Part shown: piece after piece, positions 28,123 to 32,775 of the stretch
How the letters are laid out: every line of letters begins with the position of its first letter
How positions within the stretch are numbered: position 1 is the stretch's first letter
Assembly (NCBI GenBank): GCA_007376745.1
Contig: VMGU01000001.1
Coordinates: forward strand, 1 to 34,611
DNA from: Parcubacteria group bacterium Athens0714_26
GTDB taxonomy: Bacteria; Patescibacteriota; Minisyncoccia; UBA6257; 02-FULL-45-10c
Direction: 5' to 3'
DNA length: 34,611 nt
The notes under the pieces: generated by a model
What the model was told of the DNA's origin: nothing
The model's database searches: none
Seen by the model: the letters and a program-made list of their open reading frames with translations, nothing else
Made by a program: the position numbers and the translations under genes

Positions 28123-28216
28123 GCTGAGGTGGCCGAGAGGCTGAAGGCGGCAGGTTGCTAACCTGTTATACGGGTTTAAATCCGTATCGAGAGTTCGAAT
28201 CTCTCCCTCACCGCCA
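28123..28216 (+). tRNA. tRNA-Ser (anticodon GCU) with encoded CCA, preceded by a 9-nt tandem duplicate of its 5' acceptor strand (28114-28122)
   Basis: D arm gccgagaggctgaaggc, anticodon loop ttGCTaa, long variable arm atacgg/ccgtat, T arm gagag-ttcgaat-ctctc, 3' end cctcacc-g-cca. The proximal 5' strand gctgagg gives a C2:C71 mismatch; the upstream copy ggtgagg pairs perfectly. Confidence 0.85.
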
Positions 28217-28252
28217 GATTGGCAACTTTGAACCGAAGTAGAATAAGGCTTC

Positions 28253-28969
28253 TTGGACAAAAGTAATATGCAAAAACGAACATTAACCCAAATTAAAAAA
28301 GCACTTCAAGAACTCTCAAAAAAGGGGTGGATTAAATCTAATCGCAGTCACAATACTGGAATAGGCAAAACTTTAGAGGACTATCTCGGTATTACGGAAA
28401 ACAATATTGCTCTGCCAGACTTTGGAGTAATGGAATTAAAATCTCAAAGACTTAATACTCTTTCGATGATGACCTTGTTCACCAAGAGTCCGGAAGGTAT
28501 TACAAACGCTGAAATAAGAAAACGCTTCGGTTATCCCGATCCTGAATTTCCTAAGATTAAAATTCTTCATCAAACCATCAGTGATGGTAAGAGAAATGGT
28601 ATGGGATTTCAGGCTACTATTGATGAGAAGCAAGGGAAATTATTGATTCTCAAAAAGGGCAAGCTTTTAGGATATTACAGTTTGGCGTTTTTGAGGAAAA
28701 AAGCTATCGAAAAAATAGGAGATGGGTTGATATTGGTTCGTGCTGAAACAAAAAAGATTCGGGGGCACGAATACTTTCACTATAAAGATGCTTATGTTTT
28801 GAAAGAAATTGATCCAACTAAGTTTCTTGCTCACTCAAAATATGATATCCGCTTAGGCGTTTATCATAGTGGTAAAAACGCAGGTAAACCACATGACCAC
28901 GGCTCGGCATTTCGCCTGACCGAAAAATCTCTACCACTTTTGTTTAAGATTCAGAAAAAAATTCTCTAA
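28253..28969 (+). CDS. type II restriction endonuclease, MvaI/BcnI (MutH-like) family
   Basis: NTGIGKTLEDYLGITENNIALPDFGVMELKSQR parallels the BcnI segment GQILERQFGVQENNITLGDLGEFELKGMR as I recall it, giving PD...ELK catalytic residues. C-terminal KPHDHGSAFRL parallels GPHDRGPHLRI. TTG start at 28253 has the SD taagg; an alternative ATG is at 28268. Confidence 0.75.
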   Translation: MDKSNMQKRTLTQIKKALQELSKKGWIKSNRSHNTGIGKTLEDYLGITENNIALPDFGVMELKSQRLNTLSMMTLFTKSPEGITNAEIRKRFGYPDPEFPKIKILHQTISDGKRNGMGFQATIDEKQGKLLILKKGKLLGYYSLAFLRKKAIEKIGDGLILVRAETKKIRGHEYFHYKDAYVLKEIDPTKFLAHSKYDIRLGVYHSGKNAGKPHDHGSAFRLTEKSLPLLFKIQKKIL

Positions 28970-30831
28970 TTCTTCCTTAGGACAACAATACTTTCCTTAT
29001 TCATTGTTTCCTCTAGAGCGCCAACAATATTTGTTGGAGAGTTTTTGATTGGCATTCTTTTCCCCGGAATATTTCGGACAATTATATCTTCGCAAGTAAA
29101 ACCTATCTTTTCTGCTAATTCCGCAATAATAAAGTCGGTTGGAATTCGTACTTGTTTAACCAGTCTATTTCCGACAACGAGGCAAAAGTATTTTCCTGGT
29201 TTAAGTATTCTATGAGAATGCTTCAAACATTCATTCAATCCGAGATTAAAACTCAATACATCTTTTGCCCTTGCTTCGTCTTGCTTAGCAATTTTTTCTA
29301 ATGATTCTTTGAGATAACCAGATGAAAGTGTGTGAATCAAATTTTTGGTAGCTCTACCCCCAAGGAGGTCGTTATCTACCCCAGAGGCATCATTTGGGTC
29401 TTCAAATACATCAATCCATTGGGCAGAGAGCCTAGAAAACTGTCCGTAAGCTACCGTAGTACGACTATCACCATATGGAGGTGAGGTGACTATGCAATCA
29501 ATAGAGTCCGCTTTAATTCCGTTGTCTTTTGATGAATCACCATAGATTATTTTTGTCCACGAATCCTTTTTTGCATCTTTGTAAAATTCACTCATTCCGG
29601 CGATATTTTTCTCTGTGTGTTTGCGAAATATCCCAATAACATCCGGATCATGTTTTTCCAGTTTTTCCCCTTTAACACGCACTAGTTTAAATTCCCCAGT
29701 CTTTGTATTTGAGGAATAGCGAACTGTCTCACTAAAAGCGACCATTAGAAAATTCTGAATGGTTTCATCTTTTATTTCTCGTATAGCTTTCTTTAATTTC
29801 GCAAGTTTAACGATTACCTTATCCTTAAACCAAAAATCAATATTCTTAAAATCTGGTCTTTTTATCTCGTTATCTTTAATTTTTTCTACTCTATCAAGTA
29901 AAGTGAGATATTCTTTTGTTAATTTTTGAGGATTGATTGGGGTTGTTTTTGCTTTCGCAAGAAAAATAGCTAGAGGATTAAGGTCAATACCATAAGCATT
30001 TCTCCCTATCAATCTACTTTCGACTAAAGCTGAGCCAGAGCCACAAAAAATATCGCAAATTGTATCACCCTCTTTACTATAAGTTTCTAGTAATCTTCGT
30101 CCAACCTGTGGAATAAACATTGCGGGATAAGTATGTATTCCGTGCGTGTATGATTTTGTTTTTTCACCTCTATAGTCCCAGGAGTAATCTATTTTACGGA
30201 CGTACTTCTCATCTCTTGATTGCCCTTGATCAAGTTGTGATTCAAGATTGCGAATAATTTTAACGACAACACCTCTCACTTCTACTTCATCACGATAAAT
30301 TGGGAAAAGTGTCGGATTTGCCGGCTGGAGTCTGAACTTCCCATTTTCACGATACAGCTTTTTGAGTGTTGCTTCATTGTCATCAATGACTACCACAACG
30401 GTCTGACCATTTTCTGCCACATCCTGTTTACGGATTACAATAATATCACCATCAAAAATACCTTCATCGATCATACTGCTACCTTGAACTCGCAGGGCAT
30501 AGTGTTTGCCTTGCTTTCCAATTTCATCTTTTGCTATCGTGATAGTCTCATCAGAAATTTCTATGGCTTCGATTGGCTGACCTGCGGCGATTGCCCCAAG
30601 AATAGGAATCTCTATCATCTGCTTTGCTTCTACTGTCGAGACAGCTCGTGGTTGATTGTGTTCTTTATTCAGAAATCCAGCATCTTGAAGTTTACTGATG
30701 TAATAGTGAGACGTGGAAGCAGAAGCTAGTTTAAATTTTTGCCTTATTTCCTCAAGAGAGGGAGCATATTCATGCCTTGCTCTATAAGATTTGATGAAAT
30801 CAAGGACTTGCACTTGCTTTTTTGTGAGCAT
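28966..30831 (-). CDS. fusion protein: full-length LexA-type repressor (wHTH + S24 autopeptidase, aa 1-~195) joined to an amino (N4-C/N6-A) DNA methyltransferase (aa ~230-621)
   Basis: LexA landmarks fall at near-E. coli numbering: Ala83-Gly84 in ILGAIAAGQP, GSSM with Ser119, ATLKKL with Lys157. MTase motif I is DIFCGSGS (30031-30054) and motif IV is TSPPY (29473-29484). It is one uninterrupted 621-codon ORF. Confidence 0.8.
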   Translation of the reverse strand: MLTKKQVQVLDFIKSYRARHEYAPSLEEIRQKFKLASASTSHYYISKLQDAGFLNKEHNQPRAVSTVEAKQMIEIPILGAIAAGQPIEAIEISDETITIAKDEIGKQGKHYALRVQGSSMIDEGIFDGDIIVIRKQDVAENGQTVVVVIDDNEATLKKLYRENGKFRLQPANPTLFPIYRDEVEVRGVVVKIIRNLESQLDQGQSRDEKYVRKIDYSWDYRGEKTKSYTHGIHTYPAMFIPQVGRRLLETYSKEGDTICDIFCGSGSALVESRLIGRNAYGIDLNPLAIFLAKAKTTPINPQKLTKEYLTLLDRVEKIKDNEIKRPDFKNIDFWFKDKVIVKLAKLKKAIREIKDETIQNFLMVAFSETVRYSSNTKTGEFKLVRVKGEKLEKHDPDVIGIFRKHTEKNIAGMSEFYKDAKKDSWTKIIYGDSSKDNGIKADSIDCIVTSPPYGDSRTTVAYGQFSRLSAQWIDVFEDPNDASGVDNDLLGGRATKNLIHTLSSGYLKESLEKIAKQDEARAKDVLSFNLGLNECLKHSHRILKPGKYFCLVVGNRLVKQVRIPTDFIIAELAEKIGFTCEDIIVRNIPGKRMPIKNSPTNIVGALEETMNKESIVVLRKN

Positions 30832-30871
30832 ACTGATAGTATAGATGATAATTAGAATGTATACAAGTATA
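30830..30871. promoter_or_regulatory. dyad-symmetric candidate operators in the divergent promoter region
   Basis: ATACTgatAGTAT (30830-30842) overlaps the MTase start codon and -10. TATACaaGTATA lies at 30860-30871. GTATA/TATAC half-sites are repeated. Confidence 0.35.
30838..30866 (-). promoter_or_regulatory. candidate promoter TTGTAT-N17-TATACT for the LexA-MTase gene, probably giving a leaderless or very short-leader mRNA
   Basis: On the minus strand the -10 ends 6 nt before the ATG. There is no SD. Confidence 0.45.
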
Positions 30872-30889
30872 ACTTATCCACAAAAAACT

Positions 30890-31132
30890 ATGGCAAATTA
30901 CCACGTTACAAAAGACAAAGAATCAGGTGATTGGAAAGCAAAAAGAGAAGGAGCTGATCGAGCTGCTGGTCATTATGACACCCAAGCAGAGGCAGAGAAA
31001 GCGGCAAAAGAGTTTTCTGCTAATACTGGTGGTGGTGAAGTGAGGATCCACAGTCCAAAAGGGCCAATCCGAGACAGCGATACAGTAGCCCCCGGAAACG
31101 ATCCATACCCACCTCGCGATAAAAAACATTAG
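30890..31132 (+). CDS. DUF2188-family small protein (80 aa)
   Basis: MANYHVTKDKESGDWKAKREGADRAAGHYDTQAEAEKAAKEF...GGEVRIHSPKGPIRDSDT fits the DUF2188 pattern (yhV...gW.vk.eg..ra...f.tk.eA...A...a....e..ih...G.i). The ORF-track start at 30845 is probably too far upstream. Confidence 0.7.
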   Translation: MANYHVTKDKESGDWKAKREGADRAAGHYDTQAEAEKAAKEFSANTGGGEVRIHSPKGPIRDSDTVAPGNDPYPPRDKKH

Positions 31133-31136
31133 GATT

Positions 31137-31847
31137 ATGAGTAGCTTGTTGCACCCAAGAAACATATTGAAGGGAAAAATAGTACAGATATTGATAACAA
31201 TTGTTGTTTTATTTTTTGGCCTGTATTTGGCATGCCCCACATTTAGAGATTACCTTTCTGAACAAAAGATTGATGCCAACTTTGTGCTGGGATTCTTAAC
31301 AGTCATTACTCTTATGGTCAGTATTTGGCAGAATACCAAAGATAGAAAGCTAACCTATAACATGAATGTTTGGGAGTCGGTGAGAGACAATGGTTTAGCA
31401 ATAATAAGTAAACTGATTGCAATAAGGCAAAAAAGTGACATTATCGTCAAAACTCTAAAGAGCCACCATGAAGCGATAAAGAATAAGCAAGTATTCATGG
31501 ATTTTAATGATACCCTGTCAAAAAGAGATATTGACGATGGATTTCAGATAGTGACTGCTTATGCGGATACGTATTTCAGAGAAGAGTGTGAAGGATGGAA
31601 TGAGATGCTAAACAAATTGAGTACTATGGCAACAGATAATATAAACGTAATCAAGAATTATCAGATCAATTTGCATTTAATTATGAGTGGGACTAATTTT
31701 ACAAATCCGACTCTAGATAAGTTGGATGAAATAATCGCTAATGCAGAAAAAACGGATAAAGAAATTGGTGAGATCACTGGGGAGATGAGAAATAAAATTA
31801 TCGAGAAGACAAATAGTATTAGTGATAAAATTAAAAATAATTTATAG
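31137..31847 (+). CDS. hypothetical 2-TM membrane protein with a helical C-terminal domain (236 aa)
   Basis: TM1 is IVQILITIVVLFFGLYLAC and TM2 is FVLGFLTVITLMVSIW. It starts 4 nt after the DUF2188 stop, so it is probably co-transcribed. Confidence 0.6.
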   Translation: MSSLLHPRNILKGKIVQILITIVVLFFGLYLACPTFRDYLSEQKIDANFVLGFLTVITLMVSIWQNTKDRKLTYNMNVWESVRDNGLAIISKLIAIRQKSDIIVKTLKSHHEAIKNKQVFMDFNDTLSKRDIDDGFQIVTAYADTYFREECEGWNEMLNKLSTMATDNINVIKNYQINLHLIMSGTNFTNPTLDKLDEIIANAEKTDKEIGEITGEMRNKIIEKTNSISDKIKNNL

Positions 31848-31995
31848 CGCTGACATTAAATTATTGAATAATCTACGGCACTTTGCCCCTTATCCGACTT
31901 CGGCTTTGGCGTCTCGAACCATTCTGGATGAACTTTGTAGATAACTCTTAGTTTCTGTATACTTTTATCAAGATCCTCGAATTTGAGCCGCTTTT

Positions 31996-32019
31996 TCCTT
32001 CGACTTTGCTCAGGACGAG
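31996..32019 (+). repeat. copy of the short repeat tccttcgac...gctcagga (would translate as FDFAQDE)
   Basis: tccttcgactttgctcaggacgag, related to the copies at 32969-32993 and 33018-33043. Confidence 0.5.
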
Positions 32020-32139
32020 TCGGTTCAAAGTCCCGGGCATCGTCCCCGCCAAAATTCGGAATTCAAATTTCCGTCAAAAATATGGTCGGCGCGAAGCGGT
32101 AGTAAAATAGATAAGCATCATTTTTTAAATTAGAGAGCT

Positions 32140-32775
32140 ATGCTAGATACCGATATATTTAGTAAATTTATTAAACATGCGAACGTTGCCCATCAGCAAC
32201 TTTGTGTATGGTTTTCGGCAAATAATGAATTTGCGAAACATCAAGTACGCTGGAACAAACTTGATCCTGAAATTGGACCATTTGGTCTAGAAAATTTCAC
32301 TCGGAAGCACGGGTGTAAATATAAGAATTTTTGGAGCATCGCTATCCCAACATTGCAACACGGATGGATATTGTCGACTGCACGACTCTTCGACCCAGCA
32401 TACCATCCATATGATAAGAAAAAATTAAAACCCCGAATTTGTTTAGAGTATGTCCTAATGAAACTCGATGACCAAACATTGTCAGATTCTATAAGAAAAC
32501 AGATTACCCCTCACGAATCGGTCATCAAATCATTAAAAGTTCATAGAGATAATGCTGAAACGCACAACGATGCCAATTTCACACCTACCCATATTGAGAT
32601 GGGAGTTGAAAATCTTTTCCAATGGCTAGAAGATATCATAGAATTAATCAGGATGTCTAAGCCATATCTAAATGGGTGTGGAATTATTAATATTACTTAC
32701 AACGAAAAGCTGGCACAGTGTGGTGTTGATGAAATTTTTGAAGATTTATTGCTTTCCGAAAAAAATGGGCACTGA
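32140..32775 (+). CDS. HEPN-like (AbiU2-type) protein, putative abortive-infection RNase (211 aa)
   Basis: KVHRDNAETHND contains R-x5-H with the R[DN]xxx[AST]H spacing of AbiU2-type HEPN domains. Composition looks all-helical. The gene stands alone in an accessory context. Confidence 0.4.
   Translation: MLDTDIFSKFIKHANVAHQQLCVWFSANNEFAKHQVRWNKLDPEIGPFGLENFTRKHGCKYKNFWSIAIPTLQHGWILSTARLFDPAYHPYDKKKLKPRICLEYVLMKLDDQTLSDSIRKQITPHESVIKSLKVHRDNAETHNDANFTPTHIEMGVENLFQWLEDIIELIRMSKPYLNGCGIINITYNEKLAQCGVDEIFEDLLLSEKNGH

Follow-up and report, generated by a model that had tools for sequence, protein, structure and literature searches.

DUF2188 proteins are widespread, uncharacterized and linked to defence. 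In Gram-positive bacteria, the SOS cell-division inhibitors YneA, SosA, ChiZ and DivS are encoded divergently from lexA. Cis-mobilizable elements (CIMEs) are integrase-less, att-flanked islands that accrete at the 3' ends of tRNAs or genes. A tie between DUF2188 and repressors cleaved by metallopeptidases has been published, with DUF2188 operons located divergently from CapH/CapP (Lau et al., bioRxiv 10.1101/2022.04.27.489752, citing Burroughs & Aravind 2020).

Here, we analyzed a 34,611-nucleotide stretch of Parcubacteria group bacterium Athens0714_26 (contig VMGU01000001.1, positions 1 to 34,611), hereafter the window, in which a DUF2188 gene and the following gene for a protein with two transmembrane segments (2-TM) lie divergently from a gene encoding a LexA module fused to a DNA methyltransferase. 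The host is an ultra-small bacterium, and the locus is a small, presumably mobile defence island. The interpretation that we favor, at roughly even confidence when taken as a whole, is that of a cargo-swapping island in which the LexA fusion controls DUF2188, the 2-TM gene forming one of the fixed ends and riding on the DUF2188 transcript.

A tRNA-Ser island with fixed ends and swappable cargo

The gene pair lies in an integrase-less island of ~3.8 kb (about 28186-32056) that is attached to the 3' end of a tRNA-Ser. This tRNA (GCT; 28123-28216, + strand), identified with ARAGORN and the Rfam tRNA model, has its last ~30 nt, from 28186 on, inside the island block. Homology with locus L014, which has another isoacceptor (tRNA-Ser GGA), begins at 28186, and the window is 89% identical to L014 over 28186-31996, with unrelated flanks. 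No integrase or recombinase ORF was found between 28217 and 32056. The left end is a conserved leader (28217-28260, +) located upstream of whichever cargo gene comes first; this leader of ~45 nt precedes five different cargo sets (L014, L007, L001, L003 and L009). In the window, the cargo consists of DUF2188 and an MvaI-type restriction-modification (R-M) pair, namely, an MvaI/BcnI-family restriction endonuclease (28253-28969, +; PF15515, E = 1.8e-45) and the methyltransferase with its complete LexA module (28966-30831, -; 621 aa).

The right end comprises the 2-TM gene (31137-31847, +; 236 aa), a probable gene remnant and a repeat that resembles a tRNA 3' end. In every locus examined, conservation covers the 2-TM gene and ~150-200 nt beyond it. 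The frame 31856-32062 on the - strand, which lacks a start codon and ends in ...KVHPEWFETPKPKSDKGQSAVDYSII, is probably a gene remnant: it is conserved downstream of the 2-TM gene but differently broken in L014, L007, L001, L003 and L008, and its relatives elsewhere are open frames of 99-127 aa. An identification of this frame as an integrase is unsupported, given that it has no Pfam match and that its intact-looking relatives are ORFs without known function. One relative of the frame lies near a truncated serine recombinase, and another follows a DUF2975 gene. The right boundary is an attR-like sequence resembling a tRNA 3' end (32022-32056, +; GGTTCAAAGTCCCGGGCATCGTCCCCGCCA), at which homology with L014 and L011 stops. 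The att-like repeat of the window is reduced to CCGCCA within this degenerate stretch; in the related L003 island, the tRNA-Ser end and the right boundary share 21 nt as a perfect direct repeat. Across loci, the island has fixed ends and a swappable slot that mostly holds R-M genes.

The succession of a tRNA-Ser, variable genes and the 2-TM gene recurs, with RecG upstream in L001 and L003, as it would if the 2-TM gene were an ordinary chromosomal gene that flanks a tRNA-Ser defence hot spot and is unrelated to the island. We consider this explanation very improbable and rejected it as largely refuted, because none of the 60 relatives from the same family and order has the 2-TM gene, because it occurs in only three species genomes of 185,579 besides that of the window, and because the tRNA-Ser next to it is one of three isoacceptors, depending on the locus, the outer flanks being unrelated. 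Moreover, homology with L014 and L011 ends ~150-200 nt past the gene, at the tRNA-like repeat, and alignments with other loci extend as far as this repeat. We also considered a viral origin of the 2-TM gene, which is unsupported, with zero relatives in 2.9 million viral contigs.

DUF2188 and the 58-bp control region

The DUF2188 gene (30890-31132, +) encodes a protein of 80 aa with a predicted beta-beta-beta-alpha-beta-beta fold. This protein matches Pfam PF09954 over all of its profile (positions 1-62 of 62; E = 1.8e-20, 73.3 bits, with a gathering score of 22 bits), both models of the PADLOC candidate PDC-S16 over the full length (E = 1.2e-20 and 1e-18) and phrog_3220 (3.4e-15). An alignment of 17 homologues places the start at M-A-N-Y-H (30890) and not at the upstream ATG at 30845. 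With the AlphaFold model (pLDDT 83), Foldseek yielded no E-value better than 0.7, and the weak AP2- and HicB-N-like matches were discarded; a PDB sequence search gave no matches. The stop codon TAG (31130-31132) is followed after 4 nt by the ATG of the 2-TM gene (31137), so that both the ORFs and the spacing given in the original prediction hold. The dN/dS ratio of DUF2188 is 0.00-0.04 in comparisons with the copies in L014, L011 and L007, and that of the 2-TM gene is 0.07-0.17 across relatives with estimable dS. Both are real genes under strong purifying selection, and the sequence supports their assignment to one tight unit that would be co-transcribed.

Among 401 genomes of the phylum, 21 encode DUF2188. 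In seven of the 20 other patescibacterial loci, DUF2188 adjoins an S24/LexA-like gene (L072, L074, L075, L079, L083, L085 and L087) and in two more, an HTH_3 + Peptidase_M78 pair resembling CapH/CapP (L071 and L078). Adjacency to a cleavable repressor (9/20) is far above chance, which by our estimate would be about 0.5% per locus, and this excess suggests that control of DUF2188 by a damage-cleavable repressor is a recurring design. The genes downstream of DUF2188 vary and include Schlafen/AlbA_2, MBL, DUF3892, a multi-TM protein and a putative TIR protein, the latter recognized by eye only. No common operator was found in the intergenic regions of the stand-alone S24-DUF2188 pairs, each of which has different repeats.

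The 621-aa methyltransferase of the window contains LexA_DNA_bind, Peptidase_S24 and N6_N4_Mtase domains (Pfam) and matches PADLOC MTase_II at 9e-133, and an AAG cleavage site as well as the GSSM and LKK motifs of the Ser-Lys dyad are readable in its sequence. The genome additionally encodes RecA and a separate canonical LexA, the latter on contig C42. The start of the methyltransferase gene (30831, -) is separated by 58 bp from the divergent DUF2188 start (30890, +). Promoter alignments predict a direct-repeat operator of the LexA fusion in this region (30841-30858, -; ATTCTAATTATCATCTAT), which lines up with TTTCTATTTATTTTCTAT in the promoters of other LexA-methyltransferase genes and with [TC]TTCTATTTATTTTCTAT in the promoters of the 621-aa type in L018, L052, L062 and L066; the L007 promoter carries a related repeat. 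The original prediction of a shared, dyad-bearing control region is thus right with regard to the shared 58 bp, but the dyad is better read as a direct-repeat operator. The operator overlaps the -10 element of the methyltransferase promoter (TATACT; + strand 30838-30843) and lies 32-49 nt upstream of the DUF2188 ATG. When fewer than three mismatches are allowed, it occurs only once in the 636-kb genome.

Next to the operator, a -35-like element of the methyltransferase promoter (TTGTATAC; 30859-30866, -), which includes a GTATAC palindrome, is conserved in position across promoters of the 621-aa type and is a candidate for promoter function. A DnaA-box-like 9-mer (TTATCCACA; 30874-30882, +) lies 7 nt upstream of the DUF2188 ATG, and TGTGGATAA or a one-mismatch variant is found upstream of most sampled genes for LexA and LexA fusions. 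A scan for sigma-70-like consensus sequences on both strands of the 58-bp region returned no promoter of 9/12 or better. The start ATGGCAA is common to three different divergent genes (window, L052 and L066), which may be a coincidence.

The R-M genes, being convergent, separate the 2-TM gene from the leader, which leaves the 58-bp region as the place from which this gene and DUF2188 would be transcribed. LexA-gated transcription of both genes is plausible but unproven, given that the operator of the fusion occurs once in the genome, inside this shared region. We propose that the locus is a variant of a design that recurs elsewhere: a small DUF2188 gene, located directly next to a cleavable repressor (S24/LexA-like or HTH + M78), heads a set of variable genes. 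Here, the LexA domain of the methyltransferase would take the place of the usual repressor. The single predicted operator of the fusion sits in the spacer and the -10 element of the methyltransferase promoter, and most likely the fusion represses transcription in both directions. Following DNA damage or the processing of phage DNA, self-cleavage stimulated by RecA would lead to increased expression of DUF2188 and the 2-TM gene, the latter simply riding on the DUF2188 transcript. If so, the 58 bp would be a compact bidirectional switch, and damage-gated immunity would extend to CPR bacteria.

Alternatively, the genes might be merely juxtaposed, with DUF2188 and the 2-TM gene transcribed constitutively from a promoter of their own, the LexA-methyltransferase unit having come to lie beside them in the cargo slot by insertion, and the LexA module regulating only its own gene. 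This possibility, which we consider rather unlikely, is in keeping with the lack of a consensus sequence by which the true promoter could be placed in the 58 bp, and with the demonstrable shuffling of cargo at the slot. Furthermore, the divergent neighbors of LexA-methyltransferase promoters with the same operator are many and unrelated, some of them housekeeping genes (Na/Ca exchanger, LPG synthase), so that divergent placement alone is no proof of co-regulation. However, just 58 bp are available, with the operator in the middle, and the frequency of cleavable repressors beside DUF2188 in other loci also weighs against mere juxtaposition. So does the comparison of the window with L007: the LexA modules of their LexA-R-M units share only 50% identity, yet both units have the same position and orientation beside a conserved pair (DUF2188, 95% identical; 2-TM gene, 90%), although this recurrence has n = 2 and may be due to chance, the orientation odds being 0.5.

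The 2-TM protein and its changing partners

As originally described, the 236-aa protein has two N-terminal transmembrane segments, placed by hydropathy at residues 15-33 and 45-63, and a helical domain: in the AlphaFold model (pLDDT 79), a transmembrane hairpin is followed by a long all-helical bundle, which would be cytoplasmic according to the positive-inside rule. The family comprises 14 clusters at 90% identity and 37 at 50%. With a limit of E = 0.01, none of the Pfam-A families matched the protein, nor did any PADLOC model; no E-value was better than 0.05 across Pfam, PADLOC and PHROGs or better than 0.5 in a PDB sequence-profile search. Foldseek searches of PDB and BFVD with the model retrieved generic helical bundles only (E >= 0.07), and no known 2-TM defence effector domain was matched among Pfam-A, PADLOC and PDB/BFVD folds.

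It had been proposed that the pair and the R-M genes form a four-gene system, in which the 2-TM protein would be a toxic effector that arrests growth or aborts infection and is switched on only upon self-cleavage of LexA. In support of such a system, the operator is unique and located in the shared control region, and the genes travel together in L014, L011 and L007, albeit within one island lineage; L007 has a different R-M unit (BglII + 530-aa LexA-methyltransferase) together with DUF2188. Some S24-DUF2188 cassettes also precede small membrane proteins, a multi-TM protein in L075 and, in L085, a 2-TM protein followed by a product that appears TIR-like by eye. However, the four genes are not a conserved system: in a neighborhood survey across the phylum, neither DUF2188 nor the 2-TM gene accompanies any of 19 other LexA-methyltransferase fusion loci sampled, and neither gene is found with the two abundant 621-aa types of the fusion.

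The 2-TM gene, in turn, follows at least eight other cargo sets that lack both DUF2188 and LexA; most of these sets are unrelated R-M systems. The cargo upstream of it includes Hypoth_Ymh; a T5orf172 gene with an EcoRI-type methylase and a GmrSD/HNH gene; a Type ISP enzyme; an N6_N4 methyltransferase with HinfI; an NTPase with His_Phos_1; and DUF2726 with an N6_N4 methyltransferase and DUF6996/6997. In these loci, free of LexA and DUF2188, the 2-TM gene ends ordinary co-directional R-M operons, and in L015 it stands alone. This distribution is a poor fit with an effector that is toxic and expressed only in the SOS response: it is hard to square with a protein that must stay off and argues against intrinsic toxicity. 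Together with the absence of a match to any known pore or toxin family or fold, it makes the toxic-effector reading of the four-gene system improbable.

We therefore return to the favored reading, under which the 2-TM gene would be the terminal gene of the island itself rather than a partner dedicated to DUF2188 or LexA. That it often trails unrelated R-M systems is explained by its fixed position at the end of an island whose cargo is swapped, and trailing genes of such islands should not be taken for dedicated effectors. Judged from its genomic context, the protein is probably a non-lethal, membrane-acting accessory, for example an anchor or a factor that excludes incoming DNA or superinfecting phages. 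Should a defence or exclusion activity be found, the 2-TM proteins would represent a new family without detectable relatives.

More speculatively, S24/LexA (here fused to a methyltransferase) and DUF2188 could jointly constitute a CI/Cro-like two-component switch, and the 2-TM family could be a new membrane-acting defence accessory that defines an undescribed class of integrase-less tRNA-Ser islands. DUF2188, with its beta3-alpha-beta2 arrangement, would then bind nucleic acid and act as a small counter-regulator or sensor by which variable defence cargo is set to the ON state after DNA damage, and the 2-TM proteins would possibly act as DNA-entry exclusion factors of patescibacterial islands that have fixed ends and a slot for the exchange of R-M cassettes. 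We consider the conjunction of these two proposals improbable.

Comparison with described systems

The DUF2188 protein of the window resembles PDC-S16 in matching both of its models; however, PDC-S16 is a single-gene candidate predicted from enrichment in defence islands, and is a candidate only. With YneA, SosA, ChiZ and DivS, the locus shares a membrane protein gene in an operon divergent from a LexA-type repressor. Unlike these inhibitors, to which it has no sequence or domain similarity, the 2-TM protein shows neither a LysM domain nor the form of a short single-pass peptide, being 236 aa long with two transmembrane segments and without a Pfam domain. Its gene is second in the operon, horizontally mobile and mostly found without any LexA, and the repressor of the window is not the chromosomal LexA, which is encoded on C42.

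As an element, the island is similar to CIMEs in its small size, its attachment to a tRNA 3' end, its far repeat resembling a tRNA 3' end and its lack of an integrase, and tandem duplicated tRNA ends are present in L001 and L003. It differs from them in having conserved ends and an internal swappable slot; its repeat is reduced to a few nucleotides, and mobilization is only putative.

The seven stand-alone S24-DUF2188 pairs likewise have DUF2188 directly beside an S24 repressor, either divergent from it or immediately downstream, followed by variable genes, and their DUF2188 proteins are 42-71% identical to that of the window (27% in L085). In these pairs, however, the repressor is a separate protein of ~200-220 aa with its own, different operator, whereas the only S24 domain adjacent to DUF2188 in the window is part of the methyltransferase. 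In the literature mentioning DUF2188, we found no description of the S24 version of the repressor-DUF2188 pair.

In the published CapH/CapP arrangement, an operon that includes DUF2188, in some cases as its first gene, and variable uncharacterized genes is preceded by a divergently oriented gene for a damage-cleavable repressor (bioRxiv 10.1101/2022.04.27.489752), and L071 and L078 contain exactly the HTH_3 + Peptidase_M78 pair. The layout in the window is the same, with the repressor gene upstream of DUF2188 on the opposite strand, 58 bp away. However, the island contains no M78 metallopeptidase gene, and its regulator is accordingly not of the CapH/CapP type: in place of an HTH protein cut by a separate metallopeptidase, a methyltransferase carries a self-cleaving S24 LexA module. 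In addition, the downstream gene encodes an orphan 2-TM protein, and the induction of DUF2188 operons, here as elsewhere, is only predicted. Beyond the known association of DUF2188 with metallopeptidase-cleaved repressors, the new element, if true, would be a systematic link of DUF2188 to LexA-type repressors that cleave themselves, among them a LexA domain supplied by a methyltransferase.

The DUF2188/2-TM gene pair and its shared control region

The observation behind the original prediction, a DUF2188 gene and a gene for a protein with two TM segments divergent from a LexA-methyltransferase gene, was confirmed, and its interpretation as a damage-induced effector module is partly supported. 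The link of DUF2188 to cleavable LexA-type repressors and the unique operator in the shared region form the solid part of that reading; its weak part is a four-gene system in which the 2-TM protein acts as effector.

Both ORFs are present as originally described. The 80-aa DUF2188 protein (30890-31132, plus strand; Pfam PF09954, E 1.8e-20; PADLOC PDC-S16, 1.2e-20) is followed after a 4-nt gap by the 236-aa 2-TM protein (31137-31847, plus strand), and both genes are under strong purifying selection (dN/dS 0.00-0.04 for DUF2188, and 0.07-0.17 for the 2-TM gene in relatives with estimable dS). Hydropathy places the TM segments at residues 15-33 and 45-63; by the positive-inside rule, both termini, and hence the helical bundle described below, are probably cytoplasmic. 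Divergent from DUF2188 lies the gene for a 621-aa protein (28966-30831, minus strand) that joins LexA_DNA_bind, Peptidase_S24 and N6_N4_Mtase domains. The Ala-Gly cleavage site (IAAGQP) can be read in its sequence, as can the GSSM (Ser) and LKK (Lys) motifs; the convergent partner of this fusion in the R-M pair is an MvaI/BcnI endonuclease.

The proposed control region common to DUF2188 and the LexA-methyltransferase gene holds for placement: a unique operator (30841-30858) sits in the shared 58-bp region between the fusion start (30831) and the DUF2188 ATG (30890), which lies 32 nt past it. An alignment of the promoters of 621-aa-type fusions from the window and from comparison loci in other genomes (L014, L011, L018, L052, L062 and L066) revealed a fixed module, consisting of a DnaA-box-like 9-mer TGTGGATAA, about 6 nt, a -35-like TTGTATAC, the direct-repeat operator [ACT]TTCTA[AT]TTAT[CT][AT]TCTAT, a -10 element (TATAAT or TATACT) that overlaps with the second repeat, a spacer (6-7 nt in most promoters) and the ATG. 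At the corresponding place, canonical lexA genes of the phylum (L044, L046) carry GTTC-N7-GTTC-like repeats. The window operator is the sole copy with fewer than 3 mismatches in the 636-kb genome, which also encodes RecA and, on another contig, a stand-alone LexA-like protein of about 212 aa (C42:671-1315, minus strand). Just upstream of the latter gene lies a perfect palindrome, TATGACTA-AA-TAGTCATA, unlike the direct-repeat operator of the fusion. Because the operator is unique and the second LexA has a different upstream element, the fusion looks like a dedicated local repressor. Furthermore, the convergent R-M pair lies between the leader that follows the adjacent tRNA-Ser and the DUF2188/2-TM genes, and thus the promoter of these genes must be in, or overlap, the 58-bp region. 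A LexA dimer on the operator would be expected to occlude this promoter; a consensus scan detected no strong promoter on either strand of the region.

The DnaA-box 9-mer, perfect or with one mismatch (TTATCCACA / TGTGGATAA), is located at 30874-30882 in the window and was also found upstream in L007, L018, L022-L025, L027, L031, L033, L040, L044, L052, L062 and L066. Most of the sampled LexA-fusion genes of the phylum have it, as does the canonical lexA gene in L044. The box precedes the -35-like element or the operator, about -60 to -85 from the ATG. Additionally, three unrelated genes divergent from 621-aa fusions share an ATGGCAA start 5-8 nt past the DnaA-like box: DUF2188 (30887-30893), and a 590-aa AAA_15/21 ATPase gene and a 136-aa ORF (starts at about 2935-2941 in L052 and about 403-409 in L066). 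This may reflect a portable promoter module that reaches the divergent start codon, or coincidence.

The 2-TM gene in a tRNA-Ser island

The match between the window and L014 is a single block (28186-31996, 89% identity) with unrelated flanks, and L011 matches 29113-32051. On the left, the edge falls within the final 30 nt of tRNA-Ser (28123-28216 in the window, 4991-5080 in L014, 766-855 in L007, 5418-5507 in L001 and 4853-4940 in L003), the isoacceptor being GCT in the window, L001 and L003, GGA in L014 and CGA in L007. A leader of about 45 nt (28217-28260) directly follows the tRNA end and is kept before five cargo sets (L014, L007, L001, L003, L009); the same leader thus abuts three tRNA-Ser isoacceptors. 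On the right, homology among loci starts in every case 20-100 nt into the 2-TM ORF and in most loci extends about 120-200 nt past its stop codon, ending in the window at a tRNA-3'-end-like sequence (32022-32056). This segment includes a start-less, broken 68-codon frame (...KVHPEWFETPKPKSDKGQSAVDYSII; 31856-32062, minus strand), which is conserved and variously broken in six loci and has no Pfam match. L003 carries a perfect 21-nt direct repeat at both island ends, and no recombinase gene was found inside the island. Our reading is that tRNA-Ser adjoins a small island without an integrase, with constant ends and a slot in which the cargo is swapped. In it, the 2-TM gene is the right-hand backbone gene and the R-M unit is exchangeable cargo. 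The backbone position explains why the 2-TM gene so often comes last, after unrelated R-M systems.

Relatives of the broken frame are open in other genomes (99-127 aa); the one in L090 has a truncated large serine recombinase nearby, and the one in L091 follows a DUF2975 gene. In L001 and L003, a second tRNA 3'-end copy 170-270 nt past the intact tRNA suggests tandem accretion of elements. A 211-aa ORF (32140-32775), called HEPN-like in the first reading, lies outside the right boundary of the island (about 32056) and has no match in Pfam or PADLOC and no significant match in PHROGs.

The 2-TM family is tiny, with a single-domain architecture: 5.8 billion proteins yielded 14 clusters at 90% identity, and 1.84 billion yielded 37 at 50%. 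We found the gene in just three other species genomes of 185,579, in no viral contig searched, and in none of 60 sampled relatives of the family and order; it is therefore a rare accessory gene, and its status as a core gene was rejected. In six loci it closes an operon of co-directional cargo genes, R-M or other, behind Hypoth_Ymh and three uncharacterised genes (L001), T5orf172, an EcoRI-type methylase and GmrSD/HNH (L003), a Type ISP enzyme, with a Zeta toxin gene downstream (L005), HinfI and an N6_N4 methyltransferase (L008), His_Phos_1 and an NTPase (L009), or DUF2726, an N6_N4 methyltransferase and DUF6996/6997 (L016). In L007 it follows BglII, a 530-aa LexA-methyltransferase and DUF2188, and in L015 it is solitary, flanked by prfB-ftsEX and an IS element. 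Distant members adjoin Eco57I (L050), lie among uncharacterised genes (L049) or, in L047, come after an FtsK-like motor gene, the island there also carrying SNF2 and a methyltransferase. At L047 169-2296, the family member (24% identity) starts 1 nt after the 470-aa FtsK alpha/motor/gamma gene, whose product, judging by its length, appears too short for the usual membrane domain, and is followed by ADP-ribosylglycohydrolase, SNF2 helicase and large N6_N4 methyltransferase genes.

No match to the 2-TM protein was found in Pfam, PADLOC, PHROGs or PDB sequence profiles. Structure prediction, proposed as a check with the original prediction, yielded a TM hairpin with the second helix continuing into a long helical bundle (AlphaFold, pLDDT 79), and neither PDB nor BFVD contained a matching fold. 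Intrinsic toxicity requiring tight SOS repression is unlikely, because the gene ends co-directional operons in the six loci. Our best guess, held with low confidence, is that the protein acts at the membrane without being lethal, for instance in DNA-entry exclusion, superinfection exclusion or anchoring.

LexA-methyltransferase fusions and the four-gene question

This LexA module is fused in very many proteins (3,528 at E up to 1e-10), and the 621-aa type alone comprises more than 100 clusters at at least 87% identity over the LexA module, far above the 14 of the 2-TM family. Outside the window, DUF2188 and the 2-TM gene face a divergent LexA-methyltransferase only in L014, L011 and L007. We surveyed 1.5 kb around each fusion in a 400-genome sample of the phylum, and neither DUF2188 nor the 2-TM gene was present at any of 19 further fusion loci. 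The divergent neighbours there include a C5 methylase, a ThsB-like TIR protein, His_Phos_1, Vsr, three SEC-C proteins, Hypoth_Ymh, a Na/Ca exchanger, an LPG synthase and uncharacterised genes. Opposite two widespread 621-aa types lie genes for an AAA_15/AAA_21 ATPase or a 310-aa uncharacterised protein. Given these heterogeneous neighbours and the 19 loci without the pair, the R-M pair, DUF2188 and the 2-TM gene are not a conserved system, and the predicted four-gene unit is not supported, the 2-TM gene occurring in many other contexts.

Between the window and L007, the LexA modules are 50% identical and the methyltransferase and endonuclease parts differ, whereas DUF2188 (95%) and the 2-TM gene (90%) are conserved in the same orientation. 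Thus, the whole LexA-R-M unit was exchanged next to the DUF2188/2-TM pair, which is compatible with a need of DUF2188 for a LexA-type neighbour and, with n = 2, a hint of selection for the DUF2188/LexA arrangement.

DUF2188 beside cleavable repressors

DUF2188 occurs in 21 of 401 Patescibacteria genomes, once each. At 7 of the 20 loci other than the window, an S24/LexA-like gene lies directly beside it, either divergent (L072, L074, L075, L083, L087) or immediately upstream on the same strand (L079, L085). We estimate chance adjacency within 1.5 kb at about 0.5% per locus, from one or two S24 genes per genome of about 0.9 Mb, and the observed frequency is many orders of magnitude higher. Two more loci (L071, L078) have a divergent HTH_3 and Peptidase_M78 pair; among the others, an HTH-SocA/Panacea gene is present at one and Zeta-like genes at two. 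What follows DUF2188 differs between loci (Schlafen/AlbA_2, MBL-fold, DUF3892, a shared 305-346-aa family, a multi-TM protein). Prophages Javan570 and Javan443 carry DUF2188 in the lysogeny/early region, close to CI-like repressors. The DUF2188 model (AlphaFold, pLDDT 83) is beta3-alpha-beta2, with no significant fold match in PDB.

The 305-346-aa proteins, encoded directly downstream of DUF2188 (L071 1735-2652, L074 2016-2945, L078 1622-2662), share, by eye only, the N-terminal motifs IRSL...IGF...P.PVG.A.R.NA.G; all three lack a Pfam match and may be an uncharacterised partner family of DUF2188. L085 (489-2354, minus strand) has the order S24 LexA-like gene, DUF2188, 130-aa 2-TM protein and 193-aa protein; the last begins FFSFHYDD and is TIR-like by eye only, so that the locus appears to be a LexA-headed TIR cassette. 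In the Mycobacterium prophage prophiT48-1 (gene 42; L101 2129-2722), DUF2188 forms the C-terminal part of a 197-aa annotated antitoxin, whose BrnT-like toxin is encoded next to it.

A DUF2188 protein has been named a putative Thoeris-island effector in a recent preprint. Furthermore, DUF2188 and DUF3892 operons divergent from the DNA-damage-activated CapH/CapP regulators have been described (bioRxiv 10.1101/2022.04.27.489752, citing Burroughs & Aravind 2020), and the adjacency of DUF2188 and repressor genes in Patescibacteria matches this published arrangement.
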